A DNA stretch of 64,000 nt from Balamuthia mandrillaris (Eukaryota), in NCBI GenBank assembly GCA_031835245.2, contig JAVKOQ020000071.1, forward strand, positions 124,001 to 188,000, in the 5' to 3' direction. This document shows, piece after piece, positions 2,990 to 40,822 of this stretch (positions are counted from its first letter, which is position 1; every line of letters starts with the position of its first letter). A model generated the notes under the pieces. It was not told where the DNA came from and made no database searches. It saw only the letters and a list, made by a program, of their open reading frames with translations. The translations under genes were made by a program, and so were the position numbers.

Positions 2990-3112
2990 AAAGATTAAAA
3001 AAAAAAAACAGAGAGGCTTCGCCACTCGTTTTTTTGGTAAGGTGCTACAGTTGTTGTTGAGAGACGGAGAAAAGAGAGAGTGCTGAGTGACTTGGAGGCA
3101 TTGAGTGGATCA

Positions 3113-4317
3113 TTATTCCGCCTTTTCTTCTTCCTTCTTCTCCTTTTCTTCCTTCTTCTCCTTTTCTTCCTTCTTCTCCTCATTCTCTTCCTTGTTCTCC
3201 TTCTTCTTCTCCTTCTTCTTCTTCTCCTTCTTCTCCCCCTTCTCCTCCTTCTCCTCGTCCTTCTCCTTGTCGTCCTTCTTTTCTCCCTGCTTTTTCTCCT
3301 CCTTCGTTTTGCCTTCCTTCTTTGTCTTCTCTTTCTTTGGCTTCTTCTCTTTCTTCGTCTTCTCCTCTCCTTTCTTTCCTTCCTCCTCTTCCGCATCGCT
3401 CGTCTCCTCCACAGTGTACTCTTCTGGAATTTTCTCTTCTGAAGCAGAAGACGAAGACACAGAGGCAGATGCAGAAGAAGCAATAGCACTGCGCATGCTC
3501 ACCATGAGATCTTTGCCCAATTGAACAGCATTCTTCAGCGCGGCAGTCCATTGATCCGCCTCTTCCTCTGAAGCGGCGCTCAGCAGGAGGTTCTGACGGC
3601 CTTCCAACTTGATGGTGAAGGGGCGCGACGCTTCTTTGTCCACCAAAGGACCCGTAGAGACTTCGAAGGAGTTCAGCTCGAAACCATCCTTCGGATCTTC
3701 CTGAAAACGCAAGCCAAGTTCAATTTTTTTTAAAAAAAAGACAACGGTTGAAAGGTAAAAGAGTATAGGGGACAAAGAGGAAGGAGAATGCATACGTTTT
3801 TAGCGTCCAACAAGAACAAAACGTTTTTGTGGATAATACAAAACTTTTTCTGCCATTTCTTGGGAGATATCGCTTTGCTCAGCCATCCCGATAACTGTTG
3901 TTGCCAAAATAACCAAGTCAGAAATAACCCGTCATAAAGGAGAACGAAGCTATAAAAGAAAAAGAAAAAAGGGGAGAAGAAAGAAACCTCTTCTGATCCT
4001 TCAAGGCTTGCAACCCATTGCTTTTCCTTGTCATCGCCCTCCTTTTCAGTCTTATCAGAGGACGCAGCAGCAACAGGACTAATGGCAGCACGAATGGCGC
4101 TCATCCAAACTTGCATCTCCTCCTCGTTGGCGGCCTGCAAGTAAAACACGCGAGCGCGCTTGGGGTGAGTGATGCTGAAACAGTGCTCACGATTGAGCTC
4201 GGTGGAAGGCTCCACGGAGCAGCCAACCAAAGCCACAAATCCTTTCTTCACAGCAATTTTCTAAAGAATAACAGAGAAATGTTAAAAGAGAAAAACAACG
4301 AAACGAGGCGAGGCGAG

Positions 4318-4370
<53 letters not shown>

Positions 4371-6070: not shown

Positions 6071-9000
6071 ATGAACCCATGGTGCCCCTTGGGCGAAGAG
6101 GCGACTTTTGTTCGCTTCCAAACTTTCTCTTTCCTCAGGCCTTTATATAGTAACCTCAAAAAAAAAAAAGAAGTGGTCCTGCGGTGCCGCTTGTGCAGCA
6201 GCTGGTACTGCCATGAAGGCACAAGCAGCAAGAGGTATGGTGGTGTTTCCATTGCCCAAGATGCGTTCTTCTGACTCTTATAGCACTCTAAAGGTGAGTT
6301 GGAAGAACGGCTTTCCACAGTGGTGAACAGACATGTATCGAGAAGCGTAAGGCTGGAGGTGCTTGGCGCCATAGCGAAACTTGTAAACTCTGAGAGCTTT
6401 CAGTTTCCTTCTGACCTCGCACAGTTTTTCCAAAGGTTCTCAGCATGATCCCTTTCTTGTTTGTATTTTCGTGTCTTACACTCTCCTTCAAACAGTCTGG
6501 GAGAGCTCCTGTTACATCCTTCTCAAACGCTTAGAGCTTGCACCCTGCGAGTAATTCGCTATTCTCTCAACAGACATCCCGATAAGACCGCCTTCCTGAC
6601 CCAACTCATCACCTCCAACGTTGGTTTCCTGATTGCGAGGTAGCGCTCTTCTTTTTTCTAACCCTTCTCTTTCTCCTGTCTCATTTCTGTTATTCGTCGC
6701 TTGAATGGACTTCGTTGAAACCAAAAAAGGTCGATGGAACGCGAGGAGGAACTTACTCAGGAAAGGGTGGAAGCTTTCAAGTTGGCGCGAGCATTCATAG
6801 GCTTGGACTGTTCCATCTTTCCTCGAAGCATCGTTGCCGCGGTCATCGCCATCGCCGAGACGCATCGTGATGCCTTTTGTAAAGCCTCTTTGGAGCTGCT
6901 CATTGAAATAGGTATCATCTGCATCCAGTCGGTTTCATCCTTTTTTCTTCTCACTTCAACAATAGCGATGACAAACCCCAAGTTGACCGCCTACTGTGGA
7001 GGGTTCGCAACGTTGGTGACGGCTAGTTTCGATCCGCACCACCAGTCCTACCAGCCTCACATACTGGCCGCCCTCCTCAACATCCTCAACGATGAGTCCA
7101 CCCGCGCCTTCCTCCGGACAGACTGTGAGTTGCAGGTATCTCCAGTTCCTCCACCGTTCTGTCGCTTCCTGTGGTCCCCTCCTACTCACAAAACATAACA
7201 AAACATACAGAGCATTGTATCGTTGCTGACAAACAATGATGCAGACGAACCACCAAACAGAGACCGTTGCGCAGCGGCCACTAGGGCCATCTTCAGCATG
7301 CTAAAAAGCTGGAGCGGGCTCATCTCCTTCGCCTCGGACGCCACCGCCTTGACCTCCATCGTGCAGTGCTTGCTCTCCTCCCACCTCCTCATCCAGGAGC
7401 TAGTCCTGGACTCCTTCTTCCAACTCCTCTTCGTTCCCAACTTTGAAACAACCAACAACACCAACGGCAACAGCAGCGGGAATGTCGATTCTTCCAATGC
7501 GGCTGCTGCCAACTCCGCAACCAAAGCAAGCAACACCAACCATCCAAACCCAAACAACAACAACAATAACAACAACATAAGCAACAACGCACCAACTACC
7601 CTTCGAAGACACATGGCTCCCTCCAAAGACGCTCGGGTGGCTGACTTTGGCATTGGAGGCGAGCTCTCCCTGCCGAGCAGGACCTACGGCGAGAGGTGGA
7701 ACCTCAAGGACAACTTTTTGGCCGCCCTCCTGAGCCTCTTCATCGCCAAGGGTTTGGTTGAGGCGTTGGTCTTCCTGGCCATGCGGGTGGAGAAGGATCA
7801 CCCTCAGCTGTCCCTGAAGGCCACCGTCCTGCTGGGTGAGATCTTGCATATGTCCAACCAGCTGTTGCCGCCCTCTCAGTGCGCCCGACTTCAGGTATAT
7901 CAGCTATACCTGTCTTTTGTTCCTCTCCCACGTTTCACTTTCTCGTTCCTTCCTCTGCTTTCTTCTCCTCTCTGTGTTGTTTAATTCCAACCACGTCATT
8001 GAGAAGTAATAATAACTAACACTTGCCGCAACACACACGACCCCAGACTCTCCCCAACTTGATATCATGCTCGGTGTCGAGGGCGGTTCATCCGAGCATG
8101 CGGTCCAATGCCAGCACCATGGTCAGCAACCTTCATCAGTTCTCCCACAACCGGGAGACCAGCAATCACTATGACTTTCACCTGAGCTTGATCGTTACCG
8201 GGGCCAACAAGTGGAGAAGGAGGAAAGGCATGGACAAGAACTTGGACCGCATCGATGACGTGAAGCGGAAGATCGACTGGAGCATGGATGAGAACCAACT
8301 CACGGCCAAGCTGAAGCAGACACAAGTACTTCTTTTTCTACTTCTATTGTTCTCTGCTGTTATGAGCTGCTCTCTTCTTTATTCGATCTCTGTTCTCTCT
8401 TTCTTCTCTCTCTCGCTCTCTCTCTTCTTCCCTTTAGTCTTTCTTCTCTGCTTATTGACATACAAAAAGGTGTTAACGACAAAGGACTATACGAGATGGG
8501 ACTGGGACGTCATAACAGAAGCCTTAGAAGGGCCGTTACGCAACCCTGCCCACCTCAACTACGCCCTCCACACCAAGTTCATCAAGCGCATCATCTCGTT
8601 CCTGCAACCCACTTCAAACAAGTTTGCCAGCATACCGTGCTCTCCGGTTTGTACTTTTCCATGTGAACAGCCTTCACTTCTTCTTCTTTTCTTACTTTCG
8701 GTCTCTCGTCCTCTTCCTTTTTGTTGATGCCCATAGGAGGCTATCAAGTATGTGAGGGCCGCTTGTCAGTTGATGGAACTATTGCTCTCTACCGAGGAAG
8801 GCACGACCTTCCTCTCCGAGAGTCGGTTGATATCTCACATTTCCGATCTTCTGAAGGCTGAAGTGGATGGAGTAAGCTTTCCTATGCTCTCCTTTTTTGT
8901 TTTCAGACATTCTGATAAGTTTTTCTCTTGTTGTTCGCAAAAGAATGGAGGAGCATCCACTCCATCCGCTTCTTCCGGTTTCTCTTCGTCTTCTTCTTTC

Positions 9001-12000
9001 TCTTCGTCCTCTTCCAAAAGGCAAATAGACATCAGGCCAGAGAATGTTCATAAGACTTTGGTGAGGGAGTACTTCACCCTGTTGGGAACGTTGAGCAGGT
9101 AAGTGAAATTTCGTTTTTCTGTTTTATTTCCCGAATTACAACACGACCCCTGTGGGTTCCTTCGGAGTTTTCACGGTCCGTGACACCAAATGCTTGGTTG
9201 TCGGGCACCAAGGTCTACATTCGTTCGGAGGCCTGGACCAGCAAGACTTGCACCTGGTGCCTCCATGTGACTCACGAACAGAAGCAACACAACCAGCGTG
9301 AGCGAATCTTCGAGTGCGGACGCAGGGACTGTGGGATACGACTGGATCGAGATATAAATGGAGCTCGCAACATACTCCTTAGGAGCCTCTGTTGCGGCGT
9401 TGCCCGATGGAGCCATATGGGGGCGTGCTGATGGGAAAGTGGATGGGCGCTTCTGTAGCCCTCTAGCCCACCCCATCACCGCGTCTTCGCAAGAACTTTC
9501 ATTTGTGAGTTTACTCACTTGTGTGATTTTTAATCCATCAGCTATCCCGCCGGCAATGACGTGCTGAAGAAGGCCAAAGTTTTTGCTCATCTGGGAGCCT
9601 TGTTGAGTCTTCAGGGTCGCGATGACCTTCCGTTCCTCATTCTTTCCTGTCTAGACTACAACCTGTACTTCCATCTTCTTGCTCCTTGCTCCATTTCATT
9701 CCTCTTATGTTAACTTCTTTCTGCACAGAGCGGGCTATTCCAGAGTGTTGTTGCAAAAGTCTCTTTCCTCGTCCTCCAAAGTGGTTCGATACATGGCCAC
9801 CAGGCATATGCGCGTCCTGTTGAGAGCCGGTGTTGCGAACTTCTCTGCGTGGGGCATAGAGTTCCTTGTCACTCAAGTTATATTTATTCATTCTTCATTC
9901 TGTCCTCCTTTTTCTCCTTGGCTCTCTTCTTGTTCCCGCTTCTCTTTCATCATCCGCATTCTTTTGAGACAAACGAACCAACCTTCTATTCTTTTATCTT
10001 TCTTTGTTGCTATAGCTGGCCGACAGCAACAAGCGAGTCAAGGAGCTGGCGTTAAGCATCCTGGATGAAGCCTGCGACGAGGACGAATGTCTCGAGTCCC
10101 TCATTTCCAAGAAGCCCCGTTCCCTGCTGGATATGGGGGCAGAGGGCAAGTCCCTCGTCCTTCGCTTTCTCTCCAGAGAGCAGGGCCTGCAGGTAAGTGA
10201 AATTTCGTTTTTCTGTTTTATTTCCCGAATTACAACACGACCCCTGTGGGTTCCTTCGGAGTTTTCACGGTCCGTGACACCAAATGCTTGGTTGTCGGGG
10301 CCGTGTGGAAACTATTTAAGCAACCGCTCCGTTCTTTCCAGTCGTATCCCACAGTCCCTACATGTCACAAACCACCACCATTGACGCTACCACTACCATT
10401 ACCCCACGACTCAGAGAACCCACCGAAGATCTGCACTACATCACCCCCACGAAGCTGATCAAACGCTATGGCGTCTCCCTCAGCGGGCTGGCCAAGTGGC
10501 ACACGGAGGGCAAGGTGGCGGCCCTCCGCACCCCAAGCGGGCACCGCCGCTACGCGGCAGAGCACGTTAGAGAGCTTCTTGGCCTCCCCGCCGCGGTCCC
10601 AGAACCCGAGGCCACCGAAAAGATCAAGGCCATCTACTGTCGAGTCTCCAGTCACAGACAACGAGAGCACCTCAAGCATCAAGTTGAGCGTATGCGAGAA
10701 GCCTACCCGAGGCACAAGGTCTACAGCGACATCAGCTCGGGCATCAACTGGAAGCGCAAGGACTTTGTCGCCCTTCTGGAGCGAGTCCTTGCTGGACATG
10801 TCGAGGAGGTTGTGGTTGCCCACCGAGACCGCCTCTGTCGGATCGCCTACAAGCTCATCGAGCACATCTTCCGTAGGTGCGGAACCCGTCTCCTGGTGCA
10901 CCGTCCGGACGACGAGGACGACGATGAGGCTGAACCAAGCAACGTCCTCGCCGAGGACCTCCTCTCCCTCGTTACCGTCTTTGTCTGTAGACACCACGGT
11001 CAAAGATGATATACAGCTGGCCAAGGAGGCAGCTCGAGCACGTCAAAGAGGCCAAGGCAAACCAAAAAGGGCGACAGAGGAGGATCCAAACGACGACGAA
11101 GAGGAGGAGGAAGATCCGACGCTGTTCAAGACGAGAAAGATACGTCTGAGGCCCACCAAGGAACAAGCCCGGATCCTCAACCACTGGTTCGGAGGGGCGA
11201 GGAAAGTCTGGAACACCACTCTTCGAGACTGCAAGACAACGGAGAAAGAAGAAGAGGAGGAAAAGAAGAGGAGTAGAGTGGCGTGGAAGCTGAGTCGGAT
11301 GCAGGGCGTCTGCGTGGTTAAACCTAGAATCATATTCGATTACTTGGAAGACGTCCCCTACTCCATCAAGCACGAGGCGGTAAAGCAGCTCCACGGCAAT
11401 TACCTCACCTGCTGGACGCTCAAGAAGCAGGGTCATATCCGACGCTTCTCCATCAAGTACAAGCGCAAAAAGGACCACCGCACCGAGTCCATCAAGATCC
11501 TTGGACATTACGTCCACTGGTGGAAGGGCTTCATCTACCCCAACGAGCTCCACGTGAACGAGCGTTGGAAAGAAGCCAATGAAACCCGCAAGAGGACACC
11601 CAGACGACGGCGGTTGCCGAATCCCCACGTTAAGCACATAGACCCCATGTTCGACCCTGTAGCGTATGCTTTAGAAGGCCTGGAGTTGGACGACAAGGGC
11701 CGACTGAGACGAACCTGCACACTGCACAAGGACAAGCGTCAACATTTTTGGCTCTGCGTGCCGATCCCGATCCAACATCATGAACGGGCTCCTGATAACC
11801 AAGGGAGCATCGTGGCCTTGGATCCAGGGGTTCGCACCTTTCTGTGTGGATATAGTCCTACCGAGAGAACGGTGAGGGAGTTTGGACGCAACGACTTTGG
11901 TCGCATCTGGCGCCTCGGAAAGCATGCCGACGCCCTGCAGTCCAAAATCGACCGCTCCCCACCGAGCCGCCGCAAGAGAAAACTTCGCGCTCTGCTCAAA

Positions 12001-13813
12001 CTGAGAAAGAGGGTCACCAACCTGGTCGATGACTTTCACCGCAAGACGGCCCTCTTCCTGTGCCGCCGCTACGACCACATCATCATCCCTCCCTTTGGTG
12101 TGAAGGGCATTACGGCCACCCGAGGGAGGCGACGGAGGAAGATCGGCAAAAAGACCGCCAGGATGCTCTATTCCTGGGGACATTACCGATTCCGCCAGTG
12201 GTTGCTGCACAAGGCGAGGGAATGGGGCACCAAGGTCTACATTCGTTCGGAGGCCTGGACCAGCAAGACTTGCACCTGGTGCCTCCATGTGACTCACGAA
12301 CAGAAGCAACACAACCGGCGTGAGCGAATCTTCGAGTGCGGACGCAGGGACTGTGGGATACGACTGGATCGAGATATAAATGGAGCTCGCAACATACTCC
12401 TTAGGAGCCTCTGTTGCGGCGTTGCCCGATGGAGCCATATGGGGGCGTGCTGATGGGAAAGTGGATGGGCGCTTCTGTAGCCCTCTAGCCCACCCCATCA
12501 CCGCGTCTTCGCAAGAACTTTCATTTGTGAGTTTACTCACTTGTGTGATTTTTAATCCATCAGTACCTCCAAGAAACAGGCTTCGTCGACTCGGAGCTGG
12601 AGCTGTGGAGACAAACGGAGAGCCAGAACTATGTCATGGACATCGAGAAAGCCTTGGACCATACCTTTTCGGATGCCAAGCGAGTGGTCTCGCAGGGCCA
12701 GAAGAAAGGAGTGGTGAACCCTCCTCCCCATTTCTATGGAGAACTGGCCAGAACGGAGCCCGGCTGCTCCGTCTTGAGGGAATCCGGTCACATTCCCTCC
12801 ATGGTGCGGCGCCTGCAGAGCGGACAGGGCTCCTCCCTTTCTTCTCGCGCCATTCTTTGGGCATTGGTACTTGTCTTTCTTGCTATGTTGTCGTTTCTTT
12901 CTTACATTCTCATCTTCTTTGTCTGCTCGCATGAACACAAGGGACACATCGGCTCCTCAAAGACAGGGTTGAAGTTGTTGGAGGAGGAAAAGGCGGTAAA
13001 CTTGATGGTGAACCTTGCCGAAACGAGTCCTTGCCTTTCCATTCGTGGGTACGTCATTCACTTTCTACGAAAGCACTCGTTCAGGTTCTTGTGTGTTGTT
13101 AACACTATTGTTTTATTTTTTTAAAAAAACCAGCACGTGTTTCAATATAATGGGCCTTTTGACGAGAACGGAGGAAGGACGAGGCTTGTTGGCCGCTTTG
13201 GGGTGGGAGAGTCCCGCTTCCCTAAAGCCCAACGTTTGTGTGCCTCGCGACCCGCAAGCTAGCGGGTTCTTCAAGGTTTCTTCTCTTCTTCTTCTTCTTG
13301 TTCTTCTTGTTCTTCTTCTTCTTCTTCTACTTCTTCTTTCTTCCCTCTCCTCTGACAACACAACCACAAAAGCTTCAACAGTGCCAGTACCAAGGCTCAT
13401 GGCCACAAACAAACCCCAAAGTCCCTTCTCTCCTTCTCACTTCCAGCCCCCACAAGAGCAAGAACAAAGGACAAGAAGAAGAAGAAGGCGCAACCACCGA
13501 ACGAAGCAACGAGATCCAGGTGGCGGTGGCCAACCTCGTCAACTACATCACCTGCGACAAGGCTCTGGCAAGCTTGGAGCGCATCAAGGCCAACGATACC
13601 GGCGTTCTGAAGGATCCTCGGACGCGCAGCTTCATGCTGAACATGTTGGAGAGCTACAAGTATCGCTTGAAGCTGCGGCGCTTCATCTACAGTTTGATGG
13701 AAGAGGTGGATGAGGAGGGCGGCGGCGGAGGAGGCAAGTGGGATGGCGCCTTTTGTAAGGATTTACCTCCGGCTCAACCGCGTAGATTCACTTGGCTCGC
13801 AGCTAGAAAGTAG
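6071..13813 (+). CDS. RICTOR: Rictor / Pianissimo (TORC2 subunit), multi-exon, carrying two transposon-introns; start codon uncertain
   Basis: Rictor-type motifs: EERVEAFKLARAFI, KATVLLGEILHMSNQLLP, VLTTKDYTRWDWDVI, EYFTLLGTLS, RDDL...LDY, VRYMATRHMRVLLR, LVLRFLS...GLQYL, PPHFYGELARTEPGC, LWAL(G)HIGSS...G, SPCLSIRGTCF. Stop TAG at 13811-13813. Confidence 0.9.
9099..9541 (+). mobile_element. Non-autonomous 443-bp internal-deletion derivative of the IS607/Fanzor element, forming a phase-2 GT-AG intron in Rictor
   Basis: First ~107 bp match 10193ff and last 336 bp match 12228-12563 with one SNP (A9295 vs G12317). Ends are GCAG|GTAAGT ... CCATCAG|. Removal gives LLGTLS-S-YPAGNDVLKKAKVF...RDDLPFLILSCLDY in frame. 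Confidence 0.95.
10337..10359. repeat. Left arm of a perfect 23-bp internal inverted repeat (right arm 12346-12368)
   Basis: TCCAGTCGTATCCCACAGTCCCT is the exact reverse complement of AGGGACTGTGGGATACGACTGGA in the 3' end of the Fanzor CDS. Confidence 0.95.
10362..11009 (+). CDS. tnpA: IS607-family serine recombinase/transposase TnpA
   Basis: N-terminal MerR-like winged HTH (YGVSLSGLAKWHTEGKVAALRTPSGHRRY) ahead of the catalytic domain: AIYCRVSS (catalytic Ser codon about 10647), DISSGINWKR, VVAHRDRLCR, EDLLSLVTVF. HTH-first order is characteristic of IS607. Intronless. Confidence 0.95.
   Translation: MSQTTTIDATTTITPRLREPTEDLHYITPTKLIKRYGVSLSGLAKWHTEGKVAALRTPSGHRRYAAEHVRELLGLPAAVPEPEATEKIKAIYCRVSSHRQREHLKHQVERMREAYPRHKVYSDISSGINWKRKDFVALLERVLAGHVEEVVVAHRDRLCRIAYKLIEHIFRRCGTRLLVHRPDDEDDDEAEPSNVLAEDLLSLVTVFVCRHHGQR
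10468..12453 (+). CDS. tnpB: Fanzor2 / TnpB-like RNA-guided endonuclease; start may be ATG 10468, 10798 or 10924
   Basis: KTRKIRLRPTKEQARILNHWFGGARKVWN (TnpB N-terminal HTH), RuvC-I IVALDPGVRTF, IIIPPF at the canonical RuvC-II position with the relocated Glu in SEAWTSKTC, zinc finger CTWC...CGRRDC, RuvC-III LDRDINGARNI. Uninterrupted ORF. Confidence 0.93.
   Translation: MASPSAGWPSGTRRARWRPSAPQAGTAATRQSTLESFLASPPRSQNPRPPKRSRPSTVESPVTDNESTSSIKLSVCEKPTRGTRSTATSARASTGSARTLSPFWSESLLDMSRRLWLPTETASVGSPTSSSSTSSVGAEPVSWCTVRTTRTTMRLNQATSSPRTSSPSLPSLSVDTTVKDDIQLAKEAARARQRGQGKPKRATEEDPNDDEEEEEDPTLFKTRKIRLRPTKEQARILNHWFGGARKVWNTTLRDCKTTEKEEEEEKKRSRVAWKLSRMQGVCVVKPRIIFDYLEDVPYSIKHEAVKQLHGNYLTCWTLKKQGHIRRFSIKYKRKKDHRTESIKILGHYVHWWKGFIYPNELHVNERWKEANETRKRTPRRRRLPNPHVKHIDPMFDPVAYALEGLELDDKGRLRRTCTLHKDKRQHFWLCVPIPIQHHERAPDNQGSIVALDPGVRTFLCGYSPTERTVREFGRNDFGRIWRLGKHADALQSKIDRSPPSRRKRKLRALLKLRKRVTNLVDDFHRKTALFLCRRYDHIIIPPFGVKGITATRGRRRRKIGKKTARMLYSWGHYRFRQWLLHKAREWGTKVYIRSEAWTSKTCTWCLHVTHEQKQHNRRERIFECGRRDCGIRLDRDINGARNILLRSLCCGVARWSHMGAC
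12400..12583 (+). ncRNA. Predicted omegaRNA: scaffold in the element right end, guide from the flanking Rictor exon (TACCTCCAAGAAACAGGCTT); 5' boundary unknown
   Basis: Position follows known TnpB/Fanzor biology. Visible pairings: TGATGGG 12451-57 with CCCATCA 12494-500; GAAAGT 12457-62 with ACTTTC 12517-22; TCTT-cgc-AAGA; GTGAG-ttta-CTCAC. No expression data. Confidence 0.55.
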
Positions 13814-13953: not shown

Positions 13954-15169
13954 CTACTGTTTGGTGAGGTATCGTTGAAGGCTGTTGGCAAGAACGGAGC
14001 TGCGGAAGGAAAGACCTTTGGTCTTCTCTATTACTTGTTGATGTCTTTTTGTGTGTTTGTTTTATTGTTATTGTTAAAAAAATGAGAAAAAGAAAGTACG
14101 AGATTAAAAAAAAAAAGAAAGGAGTAGGTACACGCTGGGGTATTGGGAGCCCATGACAATCTGGTTGGAGGCAGAGTCGATCTTGGCATCGAGGCGGGCA
14201 TTACGAATCATGTTAACGATCCAACGCTCGGCAGCTTCTTGGTCCATGTTCAATTTCTCAGCCAACATTCTGGATTATTTTTCCACAGAAAGTCAGTTTG
14301 TGTAAATAACAAAAAAAACTGAACACGGACAAAGAAAGGAAAGCAGAAGTCATACCCAAGGTCAATGCGTTGATGAATGCGACAATAGGTCTCAAAGATC
14401 AGGAGACGTGCATTCTCAATAAACTCCGCCCTGCAAGACACCAAGAAAAAGTCATTCAGGAGGACGTCCTCGCACTGACGCAACTTTTGCTGAGCACCAT
14501 CAAAGTCGAATTTCACATAGAGATCCTCCACAAACTCCGTGATGGGATCTTTGTAGGTGTAGCTCTCCTGTTGGATGACATCGACGAGCTCCTTTAACAC
14601 GCCGCGCTTCCTTCGGTTGGTGATAACGGCAGTGGTGAGGTAGCGCAGAACGTGGGGGCAAGTCATCTGGATGGTATTAAGATACTTCTCGTTGAAGAAG
14701 AGGTCGATGATGCCGGTTCGTCCATTAGCAGAGTTGAAGAAGACAAAGAGACTCCAGTGCAGCAGCCAAGTGCGTTGTTGCAATCGCATCAGTGGAGATT
14801 TGAAGGTCTAGTTTATTTTGGGAGATAAGAATTTGTCGTATCGCAAAAGAAGAAGATAAAGCAGAGATTTTAAGACTATACCTTTGTTTCAATAGCTTCC
14901 TTCAAAACTTTGAGGTCCTCGTTGGCCTCATTCCAGTTTTGTTTGAGGATCTCAGCAGCCAGCTTACCCCAAAGAGCGCTAAAGTTCTTCTCGGGATCGG
15001 AGCTGAGACTCCTGAAATGGGACAAGTAGAGTGCTGCTCCGGAGTAGTTACCGCACTCGTATTGGAACTTGGCGTGGTCGTAGAGAGCTTCCAAAGCATT
15101 CGCTTGTATCTGTTCGAAATAAGGGTAATTGATTTTTTAGCACTGGAGCGAACGGAGGAAAGAAGATAG

Positions 15170-15221
<52 letters not shown>

Positions 15222-20519: not shown

Positions 20520-21490
20520 TACTCGAATGTGAACGCTGACGAAATCTTCCTCTGGAGCAGAGCTGATAGTGAAAGGATGCCACTCGTGCGGTGCAATGTA
20601 TGGACAGTTGAGGAAGAGGTATTGGCCTGGCTTGTACCTGAACTTGGATTTCTTCATTTGGAGCTCTATTACTTTGGATGGATGTTGAATGGCCTGTTTA
20701 TCATAATATTAGATAACATTTTAGAGAGAAGAAGCCAGAAACCGCTAGGTACCATCAAAAGAACGGTAGATTGATGACCACGCAAGATCCGGACCATCCT
20801 TTCTACGAGATACGCAACAGCAGGACCAAGCACCCAAGCCCAAAAGGTGGGTGGCTCGAGGATCTCACCGGCGCCATGAGCGCACAACAAACCGTAGAAT
20901 ATGATGAACAGGTGGTGAGTGAACCAGAAGGCCTCAAAGTTCGGCCTTCTCACACTCTCCACCGCTGACGAGTACATCAAAATCATGCAAAAGACCACAA
21001 TATGTCCTGAAAAACAGAGAGGTAAGATGACAATGAGAGAGAGAGAGAGAGAGAGAGAACAGAACAAACCTGTAATGCCAGCAATGGTAGTCCAGGCAAA
21101 GTCCCAGGTGGTGGGCATTTCGCCATCAGGTTCGAGGTCGCTGTACCATGCCGTCAGGTCTCCGCGCGACTCGGGATCTTCGATATCCCAATGCTCCAAC
21201 GTGTTGAAGTTCATGTAATGCGATGTACTTGAGAAAGGCATTAGTACATCGAAGAAGAAGAAAGAAGAACGAAGATGGAGAAAGACAGAAGAAACGGAGA
21301 AGAGAGAAGCAATACATGTGGACTGCTGACAAAAAGGCGATGAACCAAGCTATGTTCTTGTGGAAGACGATAGCTTTGTCAACCGGAAGATACGTCCCAA
21401 TCCATGTACCCCTTATCCTGTTGTTTCGTTATTGTTATTTTTTTTATTTTAACAGAAAGCAAAGAGAGAGAGAAGAAGAAGAGAGGAGAG

Positions 21491-21570
<80 letters not shown>

Positions 21571-21620
21571 AGGGAGGAAGAGAGGAAGAGAGGAGAGAGA
21601 GACGAAGGGAGGAAGAGAAG

Positions 21621-21653
<33 letters not shown>

Positions 21654-22073
21654 CAAAGAAAGGATTGACAGAGAGGTTAGCAGAGAAGAGAATAGTTACC
21701 AAGACAAAAAGTTACGAAGAACAGGAATAAGAATGATGGCACAGTTGAGTTTTAGGGCAGCAGCGCTGCAACGAGCTCCGATAAGCCCCCAGCTCAACAC
21801 TTTAAATACTTCATCGTCCACCACATAATAATCTGTTTCGCGTGGTGGTGGTTATTATTTTCAGGAGTTACAAAGCCAAATTACCTCAGCAACACGAGTC
21901 AAGAAACAGAGCGTACGTATAAATCGTTCGAGAATAACTGCAATGTTGGCAAGCACGTAGAGAAGAATAAATATGGCTTTGGGTCCTTCGTTGATCCAGT
22001 AGGTCTGAACGTCTTTACATGTTAGGAACCGAACCTTTGGGATTGACTTTATACAATGGAGAACGTTTCCCAT
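19542..22073 (-). CDS. noxA: NADPH oxidase catalytic subunit (gp91phox/NoxA-like)
   Basis: [22 protein letters not shown] (haem His), [12 protein letters not shown]...[15 protein letters not shown] (FAD), [30 protein letters not shown], terminal YYHKENF. No N-terminal EF-hands seen. Confidence 0.93.
21463..21653. repeat. Long imperfect (AG)n microsatellite in a Nox intron
   Basis: Interrupted AG-dinucleotide runs, i.e. (CT)n on the coding strand. Confidence 0.9.
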
Positions 22074-22527: not shown

Positions 22528-23130
22528 CTAAGAGGAAAGCTCCGCCACTTTCTTCGCAAAGAGCTCAGCAGCTCTCTCCCAGACGGCTGCCATGGGGTCT
22601 TCCGCCTCTCGGCCCTTCTCCACCCAATGCGGCAGAGCCAACAGGCTGGACAGCAGATCATCCGAGAAGTTGATGCTGCTCTCCTTCGGCACCAGCGTAG
22701 GGAGGTGATCAATCGCCACAACGTCCAACAAAGGAGATGAGGAGGAGGAGGAAGAAGCGCCTTTGCTTGGCAGCACGCGAAGAATGGGTTCGACCAGAGT
22801 GGTCTGGTCGTTGTAGATGGGCAGCGGGTTGTTGGGATTGGTGTAGTCGCAGGAGACGTCCACCACCACCGAGAGCTGTCTCGTGCCCTTCTCCTCTTCT
22901 TGCTGAATGAGGTCCATGGTGAGGAAAGGAGGTATCTTGCCCATCAGGTAGATGCAGTTCACAAAGATGTCGCACTGGAGGATCTGTGGGAAGGGGCCAC
23001 CGGCGGCCGTCTCCTCCATGTCCCAGAGAACACGCTCTCCGATGTAGTTCTTCACCTGGTCCAAAAAGTAGATAGCTCCTCCTCCACATCTTCCTTTTTT
23101 TGTTTCTTTCATTAGGAACAAGAGAGAGGA

Positions 23131-23194
<64 letters not shown>

Positions 23195-24162
23195 AGAGAA
23201 AGAGAAAGAGAAAGAGAAAGAGAAAGAGAAAGAGAAAGAGAAAGAGAAAGAGAAAGAGAAAGAGAAAGAGAAAGAGAAAGAGAACAAAAGAAGGAAGAGA
23301 GAAGGAAGGGATAGAAACGAAAGAATAGGAATGAGGATAAAACCTTTGGCACCCATGATCATGACGCGCGGCCGCTTACCGGCAACCTTCTCAGCTGCTT
23401 GCAGGGCATTCCCAACTGTCTCAGCCAATGCCTCGATGCTGCTGGCCGGTTGCAAGGCTTTCATTGGCTCCTCTCCGTGCAACTGTTGGTGAGCCCATGC
23501 CAGCCTTTTTGACGCAGAAGAAGAAAGTGACAACGGAAGAAAGATTAGTAGAAGAACAACAAAGAAGCCTAGAGGGAGAGAGATAGAAACAGGAATGAAG
23601 AAAGAAACAGGAATGAGGCATGGAGAAAGAAGAAAGGATGAGAAGTGCAGAAGAAAGATATAAGAGTAGCAGAAGGAAAGAAGACAACAGAAAAAAGCAC
23701 AGAGAGAGAAGCGTACAAGCCAACAGCACAACCCGCCAAACCAGCAGCTCGTCCAAAGGCAGCCACGCGCCTGCCCTTGTCATCCACCAGGAACTCCAGG
23801 TCCAGCAGGAGACCCGAGCCCTTCACGAACCGGGCCAAGACGTCCCGCCAGCCCGTCTGGTTCTTGAAGCAGTGCGCAAAGTAAATGTGTCGGTGAGGGA
23901 GGGGGGAGTCGTCCCCTTCCGGCAATTCCTTTACGCCAAAGATGAGGCGGGAAAGGGGGGCCTCCCGCCAGCTGCCCGCCTCGACCAGGGTGCAGCCGGC
24001 CTCCTCGTAGTCTCCGTCGGGGAAGGCCCTGTCGGGGCTGCGCTCCACAAAGATGCGGAAGAGGCCGCTGTCGAGGAGCTTCTTGGCGTTGAGGGGGGTG
24101 AGCGGGGTTCTCCTCTCGTTGAGCTTGGTTTCGGCTCTTACGTGCAATTCTACCACTACCAT
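22528..24162 (-). CDS. LYS1: Saccharopine dehydrogenase [NAD+, L-lysine-forming]
   Basis: LHVRAETKLNERRTPLTP; IFGVKELP; HIYFAHCFKNQTGW; LLDLEFLVDDKGRRVAAFG; MGAKGRCG.GA; WDMEETAAGGPF; DIFVNCIYL; VVDVSCD; AIDHLPTLVPKESS..FS. Two introns. Confidence 0.93.
23135..23283. repeat. Compound microsatellite: (AG)n followed by (AGAAAG)n, in a LYS1 intron
   Basis: Read directly from the sequence. Confidence 0.95.
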
Positions 24163-30117: not shown

Positions 30118-31858
30118 TTCTCCTCTTATTGAATTGTTGGACAATAGTCATTGGATAGAAAAGCATGAGTATGGTATGTTCGCTCTTCCTTTCTGTTATT
30201 TCTCCCTCCTCCAAAAATAGGAAGTTATTCTTAAGTTAGATGGAAAAACCTTATATCTGGATAAACAAAATAGACTTTGAGAATAAAGTTCTTCGAAAGA
30301 GGTTCCTGTGGTTCGCCCAAAACGTTGTAGAGCAGGAAAAGATGAGAGACATGCTTGCCAAAGCATTTGACAAAGCCATCCAAAAACTGAACAGAACCTA
30401 CGACAAATTACAGCTCATTGACGAACTCAACTACATCAAACGACGTCAAGAAACGATTGTTGAGGTATGGTTTATGTTCTTATTATTTTCATTTGTTGGT
30501 TTGTTCCAGAAACAAACAGAAAACTATTGCAGAAACTTAAAACATTCGAAGAAGAGCCACTGTCGAACCCTCGTGAAACCAACGCCCCCAGGCCCATGCT
30601 ACCCAAGAACTTCCAAGCGAGAGAAAGGTTTTTGTTGGACTGGCACCCCACGGAGATTGCTAGGCAGATCACCCTCATCGAATTGTACATTCTTTGTTAT
30701 CTTCTTCATTGCTTCGACTTTCTTTACTCATTCTTTTCTTACGTGGTAAATCAACAACAGTGATTTGTTTCAGCGGATACAACCGAAAGAATTCTTGAAT
30801 CAAAGTTGGAACAAGCAAGGCAGAGAAGACAAGGCGCCTGGTATATGTGCCCTGATAGATAGGTTTAACGAGGTACCCACTCCACTACCTCCACTCATCG
30901 TCATCGTATTGAACTAAAAAGCTCCTTATTTTTGTTGCAGATGAGCATGCTGATGGCAACTTCCATTCTGTTGTTAGAAGATTTGGACGACAGACGAGCA
31001 ATGCTCAAGAAATGGATACTAGTTGCTGAGGTTCATTCTCCCTTTTCTCGAACGAACTTTTCTCGTTTTCAACTGGACTCAACTTTTAATCACAGGAATG
31101 TTTTACTATGAATAACTTTAATGCATTGATGGAAGTCGTGTCGGGGCTGAACGCTCCTTCATTGACAAGGCTGTCTCGAACGTGGGATGCGCTATCCTCA
31201 AAAACTAAAGATAAGTTTCGCGAGCTGACGTTGGTTACCGCCACTGAGAAAAACTTCAAAACCTTGCGAGAGCGTGTGGCTAGCGCTCCTCCTCCAAAGC
31301 TGCCTTATATTGGCACCGCTTTAGCTGACCTCACCTTCATTGAAGAAGGTGCCCTCCTCTTCTTCCTTTCTCACTAGCAACTTTATTGTTAAATATTCAC
31401 ATGCGTGAACAGGCAACCCAGACTACACAGAAGAGGGGCTCATCAACTTTGCAAAGCGGCAGGTAAGTGAAATTTCGTTTTTCTGTTTTATTTCCCGAAT
31501 TACAACACGACCCCTGTGGGTTCCTTCGGAGTTTTCACGGTCCGTGACACCAAATGCTTGGTTGTCGGGGCTGTGTGGAAACTTTCATTTGTGAGTTTAC
31601 TCACTTGTGTGATTTTTAATCCATCAGCTGCTGACAACTGTGATAGTGCACATGCAAACCTACCAACAACAGCGATACAACTACATGGCTGTACCGCCAC
31701 TCAAAACCTACTTGTTGACGCATCCACTGCTGCCAGCCGAAGAATGTTATGAGCGCTCGTTGCGGTTGGAGCCCAGAAGAGTCACTGTACGAGCCAGTGA
31801 AGGCAGAAAATCCAGCGTCAATCGCAAGGGCTCAGTTCAGAATGTTCTTTCCTCGTAA
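28696..31858 (+). CDS. Ras guanine-nucleotide exchange factor (REM + CDC25 domains), carrying a mini transposon-intron
   Basis: AASLTKLVE; FFITCRSFTTP; WHPTEIARQITLIE; IQPKEFLNQSW; MNNFNALMEVVSGL; PYIGTALADLTFIEEGNPD...LINFAKRQ|LL; YERSLRLEPR. Confidence 0.9.
31463..31627 (+). mobile_element. 165-bp miniature non-coding derivative of the IS607/Fanzor element, forming a phase-0 GT-AG intron in RasGEF
   Basis: 121 bp of left end (one SNP vs 10193-10313) joined at AACT microhomology to 44 bp of right end (12520-12563). Ends are GCAG|GTAAGT...CCATCAG|. Removal gives GLINFAKRQ|LLTTVIVHMQTYQQQRY. Confidence 0.95.
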
Positions 31859-37681: not shown

Positions 37682-40334
37682 TTAGGACTCGGATAATTCG
37701 CCCAAGAGATTGGAGAAAGGGCCGGGGAGGCCCTGCTGCGCGTCGATCGACTCCAGCAGGTTCTTCACGAGGTTAAAGTCCACGTCCACGGGGCGCAAGC
37801 TTTCTTCCGAATCAGCGGACCCGCCTCCTGTTTCACCCGCATCGAGGACTTTCTCAAAGTCCTCTGCCAGCTTGGTTTGCCGCAATTCCTCGTCCATTTG
37901 AGCCATGAACTGTCGCGTACTGAAGTTGGTGTCTTCCGTTTCTTCTTCGGAAGCTTCTTCATCCTCTTCGCCCAGTGCAAAGAAATCTTCCGGCTCTTCG
38001 TCCGAGCTCTCCCCATAGTCCATGTTGGTAGCTTCTACATCCAGCGCCTTTTGCATAACATCTATAAACTTGCCATAGTCCAGGTCAAATTCTTTGTCCA
38101 CCTCGGTGAGGTCTGTTGGAAACTCGGCTCCTTCGTAGTCCGAAATATGTTGCACGAACGATTTCATTCCGCCGACTACGCGTTGCAAAGACTCAAGATC
38201 CAACGCCTTGCCCTTGTCCCCTTTTGTTGCAGTTTGTTTCCGTCCTTGTACATCCTTCTCCAACTTCATCTCCTCTTCTCTCTGTTTGGCCCGTCTAAGT
38301 CTTTTCTTCTCTTCGTAGTCTTCCAATTCTTGTTGCTTCTTTTTAAGCAGTTGGTCGACTTCCTCTGGTGTCACGCGCATCCAAGAAGTATCGTCATCAT
38401 CAGTGAGTTCAGAGGTGAACGTGGCTGCAAAAGAAGTTCGCTTCCCTTCTTTATCAACATCCATTAAGGTATACTCTACTCGGGAGAGCAACTCGTGCAG
38501 CCGTACCACCGGGCCGTGTACCTCTTCCTCCAAGCTCTCGCCAGTTTCTAACTCCTCGTCAAAGTTTTGGTCTCCTTCGCCAAACTTGATCTCTAGAAAC
38601 TTTTGTTTGGCCACTTCTTCTCGGGCTCGATACCCCTTAGAACCTGGAAGTTGATCTTGAAAATAGTTAAGTTTTTCTAAGCTTTGTTTGTATGTCTTCC
38701 AATCTTTATCCGAAGAAAAAGGATAAGCCTGGTTGTGTGGAAAACATGTTAGCTTCATACATGTCAAGAACTTCACCTTTAAAAGAGTACAGTTCAACCA
38801 ACCTTAATTTCGGGAAGTTCTTGTGTCGTATTGTCTTTCACTCTATTTCTTTTCTCTGAGTGATACAGCATTTCAAATCCACATGCCTGGACATGGTAAA
38901 ACCACATTAGAACAACGTTCATTTAGATAGCAGAGAGATTAGGATGAGGGATAAAGGAATGAGCGTAGTATTCGTACCACTTTCATACCAAGCTCTATGG
39001 CAGCGTAATCTGGATGTGTTTCAGGAGGCAGCTGGAAACACTTAGGCGGAAAGAACTGTTGGGAGGTTACCTGAGCGTATAGACATTTTGTGAAGCGGAC
39101 CATTGTCATAATGTAGCCTTTGCCACGACAGCTCCTATCTGGCTGAATGCTAGAGACTTGTTTCTTTGTAACATAATCTCCCACTATGTTGCCGCAGACT
39201 CGCTCCATCTTGGAGCTCACAAACATGTCGTCCATGTCGCGATAGTAAAATGCTCTAACGATCGGGGCTATCAGCTGCGGGCATTGACGCAACAACAGAG
39301 CAACCTCCACTGGAACGTAGCATCGAGCTCTATGCACCTCGTGGCATTTTGCTGGATAACTAACAGATAAGATAAGATAAGATAAGAAGGAAATTAACAT
39401 ACCACAGACAGTGGAACCAGTAGCAATATACGTACTCTTCTAATCGCTTAGCTATCACCGCTTGAACTTCAGGACTGGCAACAGTGTTGACGGACAAGGC
39501 AGGATCGCCTATAAGTCTCAATGCCGTTGGTATGCTCTTTAGGATGGTTGGGATGATTGGAAGTTGCGCCGGCGTCTTGGGCAACGGGATTATGTGCAAT
39601 TGACCTCTTCTGATCCACACCTGGTTCCTTAAGTTAAAACCCATGTTTCCAACAATTGACATTGCGAAGAGAAGAAAGAAAGAAACGACAAGAAAGAAAG
39701 AAAGAGAGAAACGACAAGAAACGACAAGAAAGAAGGAAGAGAAGAAAAGTAAGAACAATGCGAATGAAGAAGATTCAAACAGAAGAGAAAAAACAAACAA
39801 ACAAAGAGAAGAGGTTACCCTGTTTTCAGAGTTTTCAGGTTTGAGCCAAGAAGGAATGGTCATGGCTGCTTCGATGAGAAGGAAATAACCATCGTTATCC
39901 ACCACACTGCATTCATATAAAGCCTGGTTGGTTTTGCTACGAAAAAAAAATGAGGCGAGAAAAACAAAAACAAACCTGATGATAGTGTTGGGAAACCGTT
40001 TGGAGACTTCGTAGAGCAGGAACACTATCATCCACTCATCTTCTATGTTGTCTCCAAACTTGGTCCTGCCGTGGAGGTGGGCGACATCTTGAGCGCCCGC
40101 CCCCTTGTGAACGCGCAGATGGAAGGGTTGGTGCTGCCAGATGTGCGCGGCGGTGAAAGGGGAGAGAAAGTCAAGAATCTGGGCGCGCAGGTCCGCCAGC
40201 CGCTGCGTGGAGGGCGCTTCCTCCTCAGGCTCCCAAAGGTAGATGCGGTATTCCACCCAATCCTCCTCCTCCCGCTCTCCTTGAGACCCTCTCCACGTTC
40301 CTCCTTCTTGTGCCCACGGACTTGCTCCGTGCAT
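37682..40334 (-). CDS. ECD: Ecdysoneless / hSGT1-family protein
   Basis: HIWQHQPFHL; HGRTKFGDNIEDEWMIVFLL; DNDGYFLLIEAA..IPSWLKPENSENRVWIR; PQLIAPIVRAFYYRD; FTKCLYAQ; ELGMKVACGFEM; PVDVDFNLVKNLLESI..QQGLPGP.SNLL. Confidence 0.92.
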
Positions 40335-40347
40335 TGTTCGTTTTGTC

Positions 40348-40422
<75 letters not shown>

Positions 40423-40822
40423 CCTCCCCTTTTGCTTTCTCGGCTCTTTTTCCTTTGTTGAATTCCTGAAATACCATTCATACTTTCCGCGCTTCGCGTT
40501 CCTATGATTTTTTGCATGGTTGGCATTCCGAGATCCAAAAAGCCCCAAAAATAAGCAATTATCGCTGCTGCTGCGCCGAAGAAGGAAGAGAGCGACACAA
40601 GCGGCCGTGTGCCCCAAAGCCCTGCGCTACGAGGAGGTTCAGCGGGGCCGTTGTTCCTCCTCCTCCTCGTCTTTGTTCGCGTTTTTTCATTCCTCGTGAC
40701 GCTGCGACGCATTGTCCAGGTTTGAAAGTCACCACAGCAGCAACATAGGCCTTTTTTTTTTGTAAAAACCGCACGGCTATTTGTGGTGTGCTTCGTTCTG
40801 CTGGCTCTACCTCTTCTTTGGG

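Follow-up and report, generated by a model that had tools for sequence, protein, structure and literature searches.

Can a transposon that carries its own RNA-guided nuclease sit in a eukaryotic gene as a spliceosomal intron, and could that nuclease act against alleles that lack the intron? The question is raised by a 64,000-nt stretch of Balamuthia mandrillaris DNA (hereafter the window; positions are 1-based in it, on its + strand), in which the segment 10193-12563, within the RICTOR gene, is, to judge from its sequence, a complete IS607-type transposon with a TnpA serine recombinase and a Fanzor2 nuclease. An earlier note had singled out 12450-12583, from the Fanzor stop codon to 20 nt beyond the repeat boundary, and proposed that GCAG, together with a guide copied from the downstream exon, would direct cutting of the intron-less allele. 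The letters underlying this proposal read as claimed: GCAG at 10189-10192, GTAAGTG from 10193 onward, TCAG at 12560-12563 and TACCTCCAAGAAACAGGC at 12564-12581, an 18-mer that occurs a single time in the window with up to three mismatches allowed. We hold with high confidence that the transposon is an intron, and we lean, with much less assurance, to the reading that it is a spliced-intron transposon whose Fanzor would cut intron-less GCAG/TACCTCC.. alleles and spare those reading TCAG/TACCTCC...

The transposon and its splicing from RICTOR transcripts

Joints and loose ends were read from contigs of public sequencing runs, in which contig depth is a crude measure of abundance. The runs X1, X5 and X11, from three separate studies, are RNA-like and X7 is DNA-like; these assignments were inferred from contig behavior, no run being recorded as RNA. 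We took X1, X5 and X11 to be RNA-derived because the ordinary 75-nt intron 12867-12941 is spliced in them at exon depth (497.8, 618.3 and 140.3, respectively), X1 also containing the unspliced intron at a lower depth (81), and an automatic guess that X1 and X5 are DNA was rejected on these grounds. Two raw RNA-seq runs, X19 and X20, with 9 and 4 reads placed, yielded nothing usable on the element.

Contigs of X11 and X1 contain the joint from 10189 to 12561, with GT..AG ends, 2,371 bases skipped and the exact sequence GCAG/TACCTCC, so that the empty form is more than conceptual. The X11 joint contig, of 401 nt, also lacks the ordinary intron 9877-10015, the X1 joint contig is 237 nt long, and in X5 a loose end before 12561 carries the same letters of the upstream exon. 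The exons joined in this way are contiguous in the protein: in Pfam PF14663 the upstream exon (10016-10192) covers positions 14-71 and the downstream exon, from 12564, positions 72-107, while in human RICTOR the upstream exon aligns with residues 736-790 plus two further residues and the downstream exon starts at 793, which leaves 792 and 793 adjacent. As the joined exons are exactly colinear with the RICTOR profile, GCAG is exon and not element, and the candidate assignment of GCAG to the element was rejected. The exact joint in X11 and X1 and the RICTOR colinearity together bear out the claim that the element is a spliceosomal intron. Element boundaries are intron boundaries, so the spliced sequence equals the sequence that excision would leave. 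The splicing evidence in reads comes from the full-length copy alone (copy 2), which is about 20 times as long as the mean intron of the species, reported as 113 nt (preprint 10.1101/2025.02.25.640156).

The same site appears to exist without the element. By its contigs X7 resembles DNA from a different strain: one contig of 905 nt, at depth 11.7, runs through the intron 12867-12941 unspliced, with four substitutions and a 13-nt insertion, the unitig that connects right end and downstream exon in the RNA-like runs (see below) is absent, and the single-copy contig over 12561 onward extends 168 letters upstream in sequence that does not match the element. The insertion site is thus probably empty in X7.

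Both genes of the element belong to recognizable families. TnpA matches the IS607 transposase model NF033518 of NCBIfam with 145.6 bits (cut-off 110) over positions 3-182 of 187, comprises a MerR-type helix-turn-helix (residues 29-63) and a Resolvase domain (89-213, Pfam PF00239), and matches the IS607-type catalytic domains 3lhf, 3ilx and 6dgc in PDB (E 2e-17). The Fanzor open reading frame (ORF) scores 146.2 bits (cut-off 100) against NF040570, the model for RNA-guided TnpB, and its best match among solved structures is the mimivirus Fanzor2 9b0l (ApmFz2; E 2.6e-26), with about 30% identity in the aligned part. Its catalytic residues D300, E443 and D484 align with the 9b0l triad D324/E467/D501 and are invariant in an alignment of 25 homologs, all invariant residues of which are retained, and the zinc cysteines C450, C453, C472 and C477 are invariant or nearly so among the same 25. 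Of the Fanzor fingerprints given by Yoon et al. (PMC10711439), namely DPG in RuvC-I, an alternative glutamate before the zinc finger and RD(D) in RuvC-III, DPG is found at 300-302, the alternative glutamate is E443 in ExxxxxxCxxC, six residues before CxxC, and D484 is there as well. The published Fanzor expression is departed from only at the second cysteine pair, Cx4C instead of CxxC, a spacing common to this ORF and its two closest relatives. The two ORFs lie on the same strand and overlap by 86 nt, that is, Fanzor2 is encoded beside an IS607 TnpA.

Proteins 99% identical to these ORFs are annotated transposases of Balamuthia mandrillaris, at least five full-length loci are annotated in this species, and several full-length copies are 99% identical. 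The deposited gene model here, P0124 (1,224 aa, window ~8700-13800), treats as one 'transposase' the full-length element in its entirety together with RICTOR exons and parts of copy 1. Other copies are modeled as TnpA-Fanzor fusions through a predicted internal intron at ~10942-11017, for which the run contigs hold no supporting joint. The species also has a second Fanzor family (P0004, 74% identical). Outside these loci, viral contigs gave 435 pattern matches to the Fanzor protein, of which none was confirmed, a metagenome scan with the 24-nt right end gave no matches, and a protein search with the translated left end, aimed at gene models reading into other copies, found none at E <=0.001.

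Copies, ends and flanks of the element

We found three copies of the element in the window, 99-100% identical, with the same ends and all on the + strand. Copy 1 is an internal deletion that retains the left 107 nt and the right 339 nt, with GGG microhomology at the junction, and copy 3 one that retains the left 121 nt and the right 48 nt, with AACT at the junction. Every copy starts with GTAAGT and ends with ..TACTCAC(N17)CCATCAG, and no intron sequence lies beyond the repeat in any of the three. GTAAGT occurs nine times in the window on both strands, and three of the nine are the element copies. All three are sense-oriented in coding exons, twice in RICTOR (phases 2 and 0) and once in a RasGEF-domain gene (phase 0). 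The exon after copy 1 matches Pfam RICTOR_M, a search for colinearity around copy 1 against solved structures giving a RICTOR match for neither short flanking exon; the exon upstream of copy 3 (31207-31347) matches Pfam RasGEF at positions 117-164 of 181, and the exon after it matches nothing meaningful in Pfam. Near-identical introns at three positions in two genes, in phases 2, 0 and 0, are what defines an introner. An older ordinary intron that a transposon entered later, the coincidence of ends being accidental, has no more in its favor than that introns are a frequent location of transposons; the lack of intron sequence outside the repeat in all three copies, at three positions, in two phases and in two genes, and a site that is probably empty in another strain speak against it, and we consider it extremely improbable.

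The ends themselves are simple. In the terminal 48-nt module, a branch-like TACTCAC at 12534-12540, whose A lies 24 nt before the element's end, is accompanied by a U-rich tract and by ..CCATCAG, the 3' splice site. Other element families, seen as loose ends at 12516/12520 in X5, X7 and X11, join the element solely at its last 44-48 nt, and a terminal splice/recombination module common to different elements seems to exist. Terminal inverted repeats are lacking, no 7-mer being common, direct or inverted, to the first and last 125 nt, and there is no target-site duplication: the flanks of the three copies are alike solely in the CAG before the left end, and with these three bases the element itself also ends. 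The two arms of a perfect 23-nt inverted repeat lie between the TATA-like motif and the tnpA start (left) and in the part coding for the zinc finger and RuvC-III (right); TnpA might bind to them as a pair, or an RNA duplex between them might tie the 5' leader to the region of the guide RNA. The 165-bp copy lacks both arms.

Short derivatives appear to be far more numerous than full-length copies. Summed contig depth in X7 is, roughly, 11 times single copy over the 3' part of Fanzor and 230 times over the last 20-50 nt, and its loose ends include short derivatives of left end plus right end, with diverged left ends. This suggests, as a rough figure, that some ten copies in the genome carry the nuclease and that miniatures number in the order of a hundred. 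The full-length copy in the window differs from the majority contigs at 15 positions (10322-11667), 12 of them CpG to CpA and 3 CpG to TpG, which amounts to six amino acid changes in TnpA and four to five in Fanzor, none at invariant columns. These strongly one-strand-biased changes are a signature of methyl-cytosine deamination. The single differences of copy 1 (9296) and copy 3 (~31572) are of the same CpG type, and the element has a CpG observed/expected ratio of 0.90, compared with 0.74 for the window.

What does the element target? All four left flanks available, three in the window and one in an X1 contig, end in CAG. Those in the window read GAGCAG (copy 1, GCAG at 9095-9098), CTGCAG (full-length copy) and CGGCAG (copy 3, GCAG at 31459-31462), and the fourth ends in ..GGTCAACAG, that is, ACAG followed by GTAAGT; a loose end in X5, AACAG/GTAAGT, may be the same locus as this X1 flank. 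None of the three read-supported ordinary introns nearby follows CAG (their upstream exons end in CCT, CAA and TTG), so CAG is not a splicing requirement of this host. A flank CAG equal to the element's last three bases is as predicted for a serine-recombinase crossover at a shared core, and CAG (or AG) is likely to be the recombination core, which, by the four left flanks and the right end, would be (C)AG here rather than the GG at which studied IS607 members cross over (PMC10711439; PMC10690162). The right flanks vary (CTATCC, TACCTC, CTGCTG, CTATGC, TTGAGA, TAGAAG, TTACAT and several A-rich ones, merged in the contig listing), as they need to if the right flank serves as a guide. Base -4 is G in three of the four left flanks; against a background of 0.32, the frequency at which G precedes CAG in the window, at least three of four has p ~0.10, so G at -4 alone is not significant. 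All four flanks differ from the T at -4 of the filled allele.

Spread as RNA was weighed against these data. An excised intron could reverse-splice into transcripts and be copied back to DNA with the IS607 genes as passengers, and the identity of element and intron boundaries in 3/3 copies and the missing target-site duplication would fit this route. We nevertheless judge it very improbable: ORF and domain analysis found no reverse transcriptase encoded in the element, an intact IS607 TnpA yields the same scar-less and duplication-free product, the CAG of the left flanks matches that of the right end in 4/4 cases, as for a shared core, and precedes 0/3 ordinary introns, and the microhomology junctions of the deletion derivatives are typical of DNA-level events.

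Right-end RNA and the homing proposal

We next consider the non-coding right end, where a guide RNA would have to originate. The 124 nt from 12440 to 12563 fold at -44.6 kcal/mol (z -3.19), and none of 200 shuffled sequences folds as well; the predicted fold consists of a long hairpin (12441-12510), a GUGAG..CUCAC hairpin and then a single-stranded tail. The last seven bases, CCATCAG (12557-12563), are also complementary to CTGATGG (12450-12456), which spans the Fanzor stop (chance of such a match within 118 positions ~0.7%); this pairing would hide the 3' splice site and is unused in the minimum-energy fold.

RNA that keeps the right end joined to the exon appears in all three RNA-like runs (X1, X11 and X5), as an unspliced 57-nt junction unitig (12534-12590) that includes the T at 12560. 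Downstream-exon contigs have depths of 578, 618 and 140, compared with 14-21 for upstream exons, and in X1 and X11 the RICTOR exons downstream of the element (12564-13000) are 7-40 times as deep as those upstream (9570-10192). The abundant RNA is of the + strand, because the next intron is spliced with GT..AG ends at the same depth. No depth excess follows copy 1, which has lost its interior, and the TATTTAA motif is deleted in copies 1 and 3. Summed contig depth climbs between 10240 and 10400 in X1 and X11, and the left-junction bin has the depth of the upstream exon, so that unspliced left junctions add little. These observations suggest that abundant 5'-truncated RICTOR transcripts are driven from inside the element, an internal promoter being the simplest reading of the downstream excess. 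Such transcripts could matter to the host, with the truncated RICTOR RNAs being regulatory, the nuclease irrelevant and the insertion kept for the host's sake, and the 7- to 40-fold excess in X1 and X11 would agree with this. Contig depth is a poor measure, however, the insertion is probably absent in another strain and therefore not fixed, and the same element family sits in unrelated genes; we give this explanation very little credence.

The homing proposal can now be spelled out. TnpA would recombine at the shared (C)AG core, as IS607 elements do with GG. Transcripts from the host promoter would carry the 5' splice site and be spliced, whereas those initiated inside the element would lack it, so that scaffold and exon would stay joined; the clash between splicing and guide production would thus be avoided by an internal promoter downstream of the 5' splice site. 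The joined scaffold-exon RNA would mature to a guide RNA and be loaded by Fanzor, which, with a target-adjacent motif (TAM) of about (G/A)CAG, would cut the empty site. Repair from the filled copy would give homing or retention, and the filled allele, with TCAG before the exon, would escape cutting. A pathway of this kind is established for TnpB, in which excision leaves the TAM and the guide-matching flank, TnpB cuts and repair restores the element, and among IS607 elements it has a close precedent (PMC10690162). We regard the mechanism as stated as evenly balanced at best. Still more tentative is the fuller reading as a 'spliceosomal IStron', in which the transposon ends have turned into splice sites and the family seeds autonomous introns plus about a hundred miniature ones, each defended by a Fanzor guide RNA copied from its exon.

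We regard the homing interpretation of the earlier note as partly supported. The structural preconditions of the model are all in place: an IS607 TnpA, an intact Fanzor2 triad with its cysteines, coincident boundaries, a folded right end, contigs across the junction of right end and exon, and a probable empty site. A strict GCAG target was rejected, as one flank is ACAG. Resistance to precise intron loss, which the earlier note had also expected, could in logic arise only as long as the cell contains a further filled copy that has the same flank.

Several points weigh against the homing reading. The right-end guide RNA, the TAM, cleavage and homing are predictions. Fanzor would have to be translated, in a eukaryote, from an ORF that comes second and overlaps the first, and the window copy differs from other copies by its 15 CpG-type changes (10-11 amino acids). 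No circle junction or 'goes back' joint occurs in the run contigs. At the target, A stands at -4 in one of the four left flanks, and the only solved Fanzor2, ApmFz2, reads a 3-nt TAM, GGG (PMC11832414); a 3-nt CAG TAM would not reach -4, nor would it distinguish a filled from an empty site. In a low-confidence region of the alignment, the counterparts of R194 and H215, with which ApmFz2 reads the TAM, are not conserved, so nothing on the TAM can be transferred from the 9b0l structure. As to the RNA, the right-end fold rests on one sequence, the copies being identical and hence free of covariation, the longer stretch 12330-12563 does not fold significantly (z -1.03), and Rfam gave no matches over 9000-13000 at E up to 1. 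The junction unitig extends 30 nt into the right end and 27 nt into the exon, short of the 31 + 31 rule for a bridge, and its depth (492, 460 and 460 in the three runs), which exceeds the depth of the spliced joint (13.4 in X1, 20.9 in X11) by a factor of 22-37, is given in crude contig depth.

These points bear on the explanation of the locus as an introner only, a spliced IS607 transposon in which GCAG reflects a recombinase preference, the Fanzor does not discriminate at -4 and is non-homing or decaying, and the element persists by transposition and harmless splicing. TnpB is described as dispensable for IS607 transposition (Bao & Jurka, PMC3627910), G stands at -4 in just three of the four flanks (p ~0.10), short derivatives are the majority by the rough X7 depths, the 165-bp copy lacks almost the whole putative scaffold, and CpG decay is seen in the window copy. 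On the other side, the Fanzor ORF is open and keeps all residues invariant among the 25 homologs, there are several full-length copies with 99% identity, the right end has structure and is contiguous with the exon in RNA-like contigs, and in the sole IS607 system tested for it TnpB drives retention and homing (PMC10690162). We think an introner without homing unlikely, yet a rival to be reckoned with.

Relation to known systems

The closest bacterial parallel to a homing intron-transposon of this kind is the IStron of Clostridium botulinum (CboIStron; Zedaveinyte et al., PMC10690162), described as an IS607-family element with TnpA(S) and TnpB that is at the same time a group I intron. There the TnpA target TGGG is also the TnpB TAM, the guide-RNA scaffold ends in UCGG, one base off, which is an exact precedent for single-base protection, the connectivity of the spliced RNA is that of the donor joint, and splicing and guide production are mutually exclusive. 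By that description, both systems combine a serine-recombinase TnpA with a TnpB-family nuclease, both have transposon boundaries that are splice boundaries, both place the guide beyond the 3' splice site (a predicted role here), and both have a 4-nt motif ending in the core with a scaffold end one base off (TGGG/UCGG there, the candidate pair GCAG/UCAG here). They differ in that the element described here relies on the host spliceosome (GTAAGT ... TACTCAC ... CAG) and not on a ribozyme, no group I model having matched, that its host is a eukaryote and its likely core (C)AG instead of GG, and that two promoters, in place of TnpB or RNA structure, are the probable means of resolving the conflict between splicing and guide production. 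In its working the element would resemble an IStron, and it is not a member of that group, as its ends are spliceosomal and Rfam gave no match over 9000-13000.

A second point of reference is the introners, transposons from which spliceosomal introns arise (Gozashti et al. 2022, PMC9860276; 2025, PMC12130899). The classes given in these surveys are terminal inverted repeat, long terminal repeat (LTR), non-LTR, Helitron and Crypton elements; IS607, serine recombinases, TnpB and Balamuthia are not found in their main texts or in 12 of the 14 supplementary files of PMC12130899, and a viral-vector paper likewise names none of IS607, TnpB and Balamuthia. The element shares with introners, as described there, near-identical introns at unrelated positions, short non-autonomous copies, splice sites of its own and an mRNA left unchanged by splicing, and it differs from those surveyed in that an autonomous copy with both genes sits as the intron. 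Shintrons, spliceosomal homing introns of mirusviruses with protein-guided nucleases (Medvedeva et al. 2025, PMC12768974), are similar in being GT..AG introns that encode an endonuclease thought to cut intron-less alleles, such cutting being predicted here; their authors speak of an apparent lack of equivalents in eukaryote genomes. Compared with shintrons as described, the nuclease here is RNA-guided, so that each insertion is predicted to have its own guide, a recombinase is present too, and the host is a cellular eukaryote.

IS607/Fanzor2 elements of giant viruses and Acanthamoeba (PMC10530073; PMC11832414; PMC3627910), as far as these sources describe them, resemble the Balamuthia element in having the same two genes, no terminal inverted repeats, no target duplication, the same rearranged catalytic site and a conserved non-coding right end. 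Their TAM mirrors the left boundary (GGG), as is predicted here, but their core is GG and their TAM 3 nt long, and the proteins share about 30% identity in the aligned part. They are not described as introns: the available text of PMC3627910 does not use the word 'intron', and that of PMC10530073 speaks solely of introns inside Fanzor genes. In the IS607 TnpB system of ISXfa1 from Xylella, matching dinucleotides recombine and the right-end base is fixed and part of the RNA scaffold (PMC10711439); as described, ISXfa1 is bacterial, is without intron function and has a GGG TAM, unlike the present element.

Our literature search turned up neither a description of an IS607/Fanzor element that serves as a spliceosomal intron nor any work linking Fanzor or Balamuthia with introners, and the items that pair Fanzor with spliceosomal subjects do not, in their available parts, describe such an element. 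Judged by sequence features, the combination of introner, IStron and shintron traits appears to be new. If the homing reading is true, the element would be the first spliceosomal intron with RNA-guided homing in any cellular eukaryote, and the IStron idea would extend from bacterial ribozymes to the eukaryotic spliceosome. The locus bears on two questions, namely what benefit a Fanzor, whose role in eukaryotes 'remains unknown' according to Jiang et al. (PMC10530073), brings to its element, and which mobile elements make or keep spliceosomal introns. An intron-transposon with a programmable nuclease is a concrete system that lends itself to testing: its predicted guide, target and protecting base follow directly from the sequence, public data contain filled and probably empty alleles, and the miniatures would supply many natural guides. 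Gene annotation of this pathogen is affected wherever the element family sits, as in P0124, which reads the element as coding and fuses it to RICTOR.

Table 1. Features of the window discussed in the text.
Feature	Position	Strand	Remarks
Copy 1, 443 bp	9099..9541	+	phase-2 intron, same RICTOR gene; flanks GAGCAG/ and /CTATCC
GCAG	10189..10192	+	last 4 bases of upstream RICTOR exon; candidate target motif/TAM
Full-length IS607-type element = whole intron	10193..12563	+	2,371 bp; phase 0, sense, in RICTOR
GTAAGT 5' splice site	10193..10198	+	element left end
TATTTAA, TATA-like	10313..10319	+	43 nt upstream of tnpA ATG; candidate internal promoter (inferred)
Inverted-repeat left arm, perfect 23 nt	10337..10359	+	E 2e-5; partner 12346-12368
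tnpA, IS607-family serine recombinase, 215 aa	10362..11009	+	NF033518, PF00239 and PDB matches
Fanzor2 (TnpB-family) ORF, 509 aa	10924..12453	+	overlaps tnpA 3' end by 86 nt
Inverted-repeat right arm, 23 nt	12346..12368	+	inside Fanzor ORF
Structured non-coding right end, candidate omega-RNA scaffold	12440..12563	+	fold compared with shuffles
Terminal 48-nt module	12516..12563	+	retained even in the 165-bp copy
TCAG, final 4 bases of the element	12560..12563	+	differs from left-flank GCAG at -4 only
First 18 nt of downstream exon	12564..12581	+	predicted guide template; target in empty allele
Copy 3, 165 bp	31463..31627	+	phase-0 intron, RasGEF-domain gene; flanks CGGCAG/ and /CTGCTG
Microsatellites	3100-3420, 4300-4370, 15160-15220, 21450-21660, 23110-23330, 40320-40450	both

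Two further observations concern the surroundings of the element. A joint in X1 skips 138 nt (9845-9982) with CT..AC ends, that is, a minus-strand GT..AG intron; it shares part of its span with the sense intron 9877-10015 and is a hint of spliced antisense transcription through RICTOR. Microsatellites of the (GA)n/(CT)n and GAA types are very numerous in the window on both strands, some of them longer than 100 nt.

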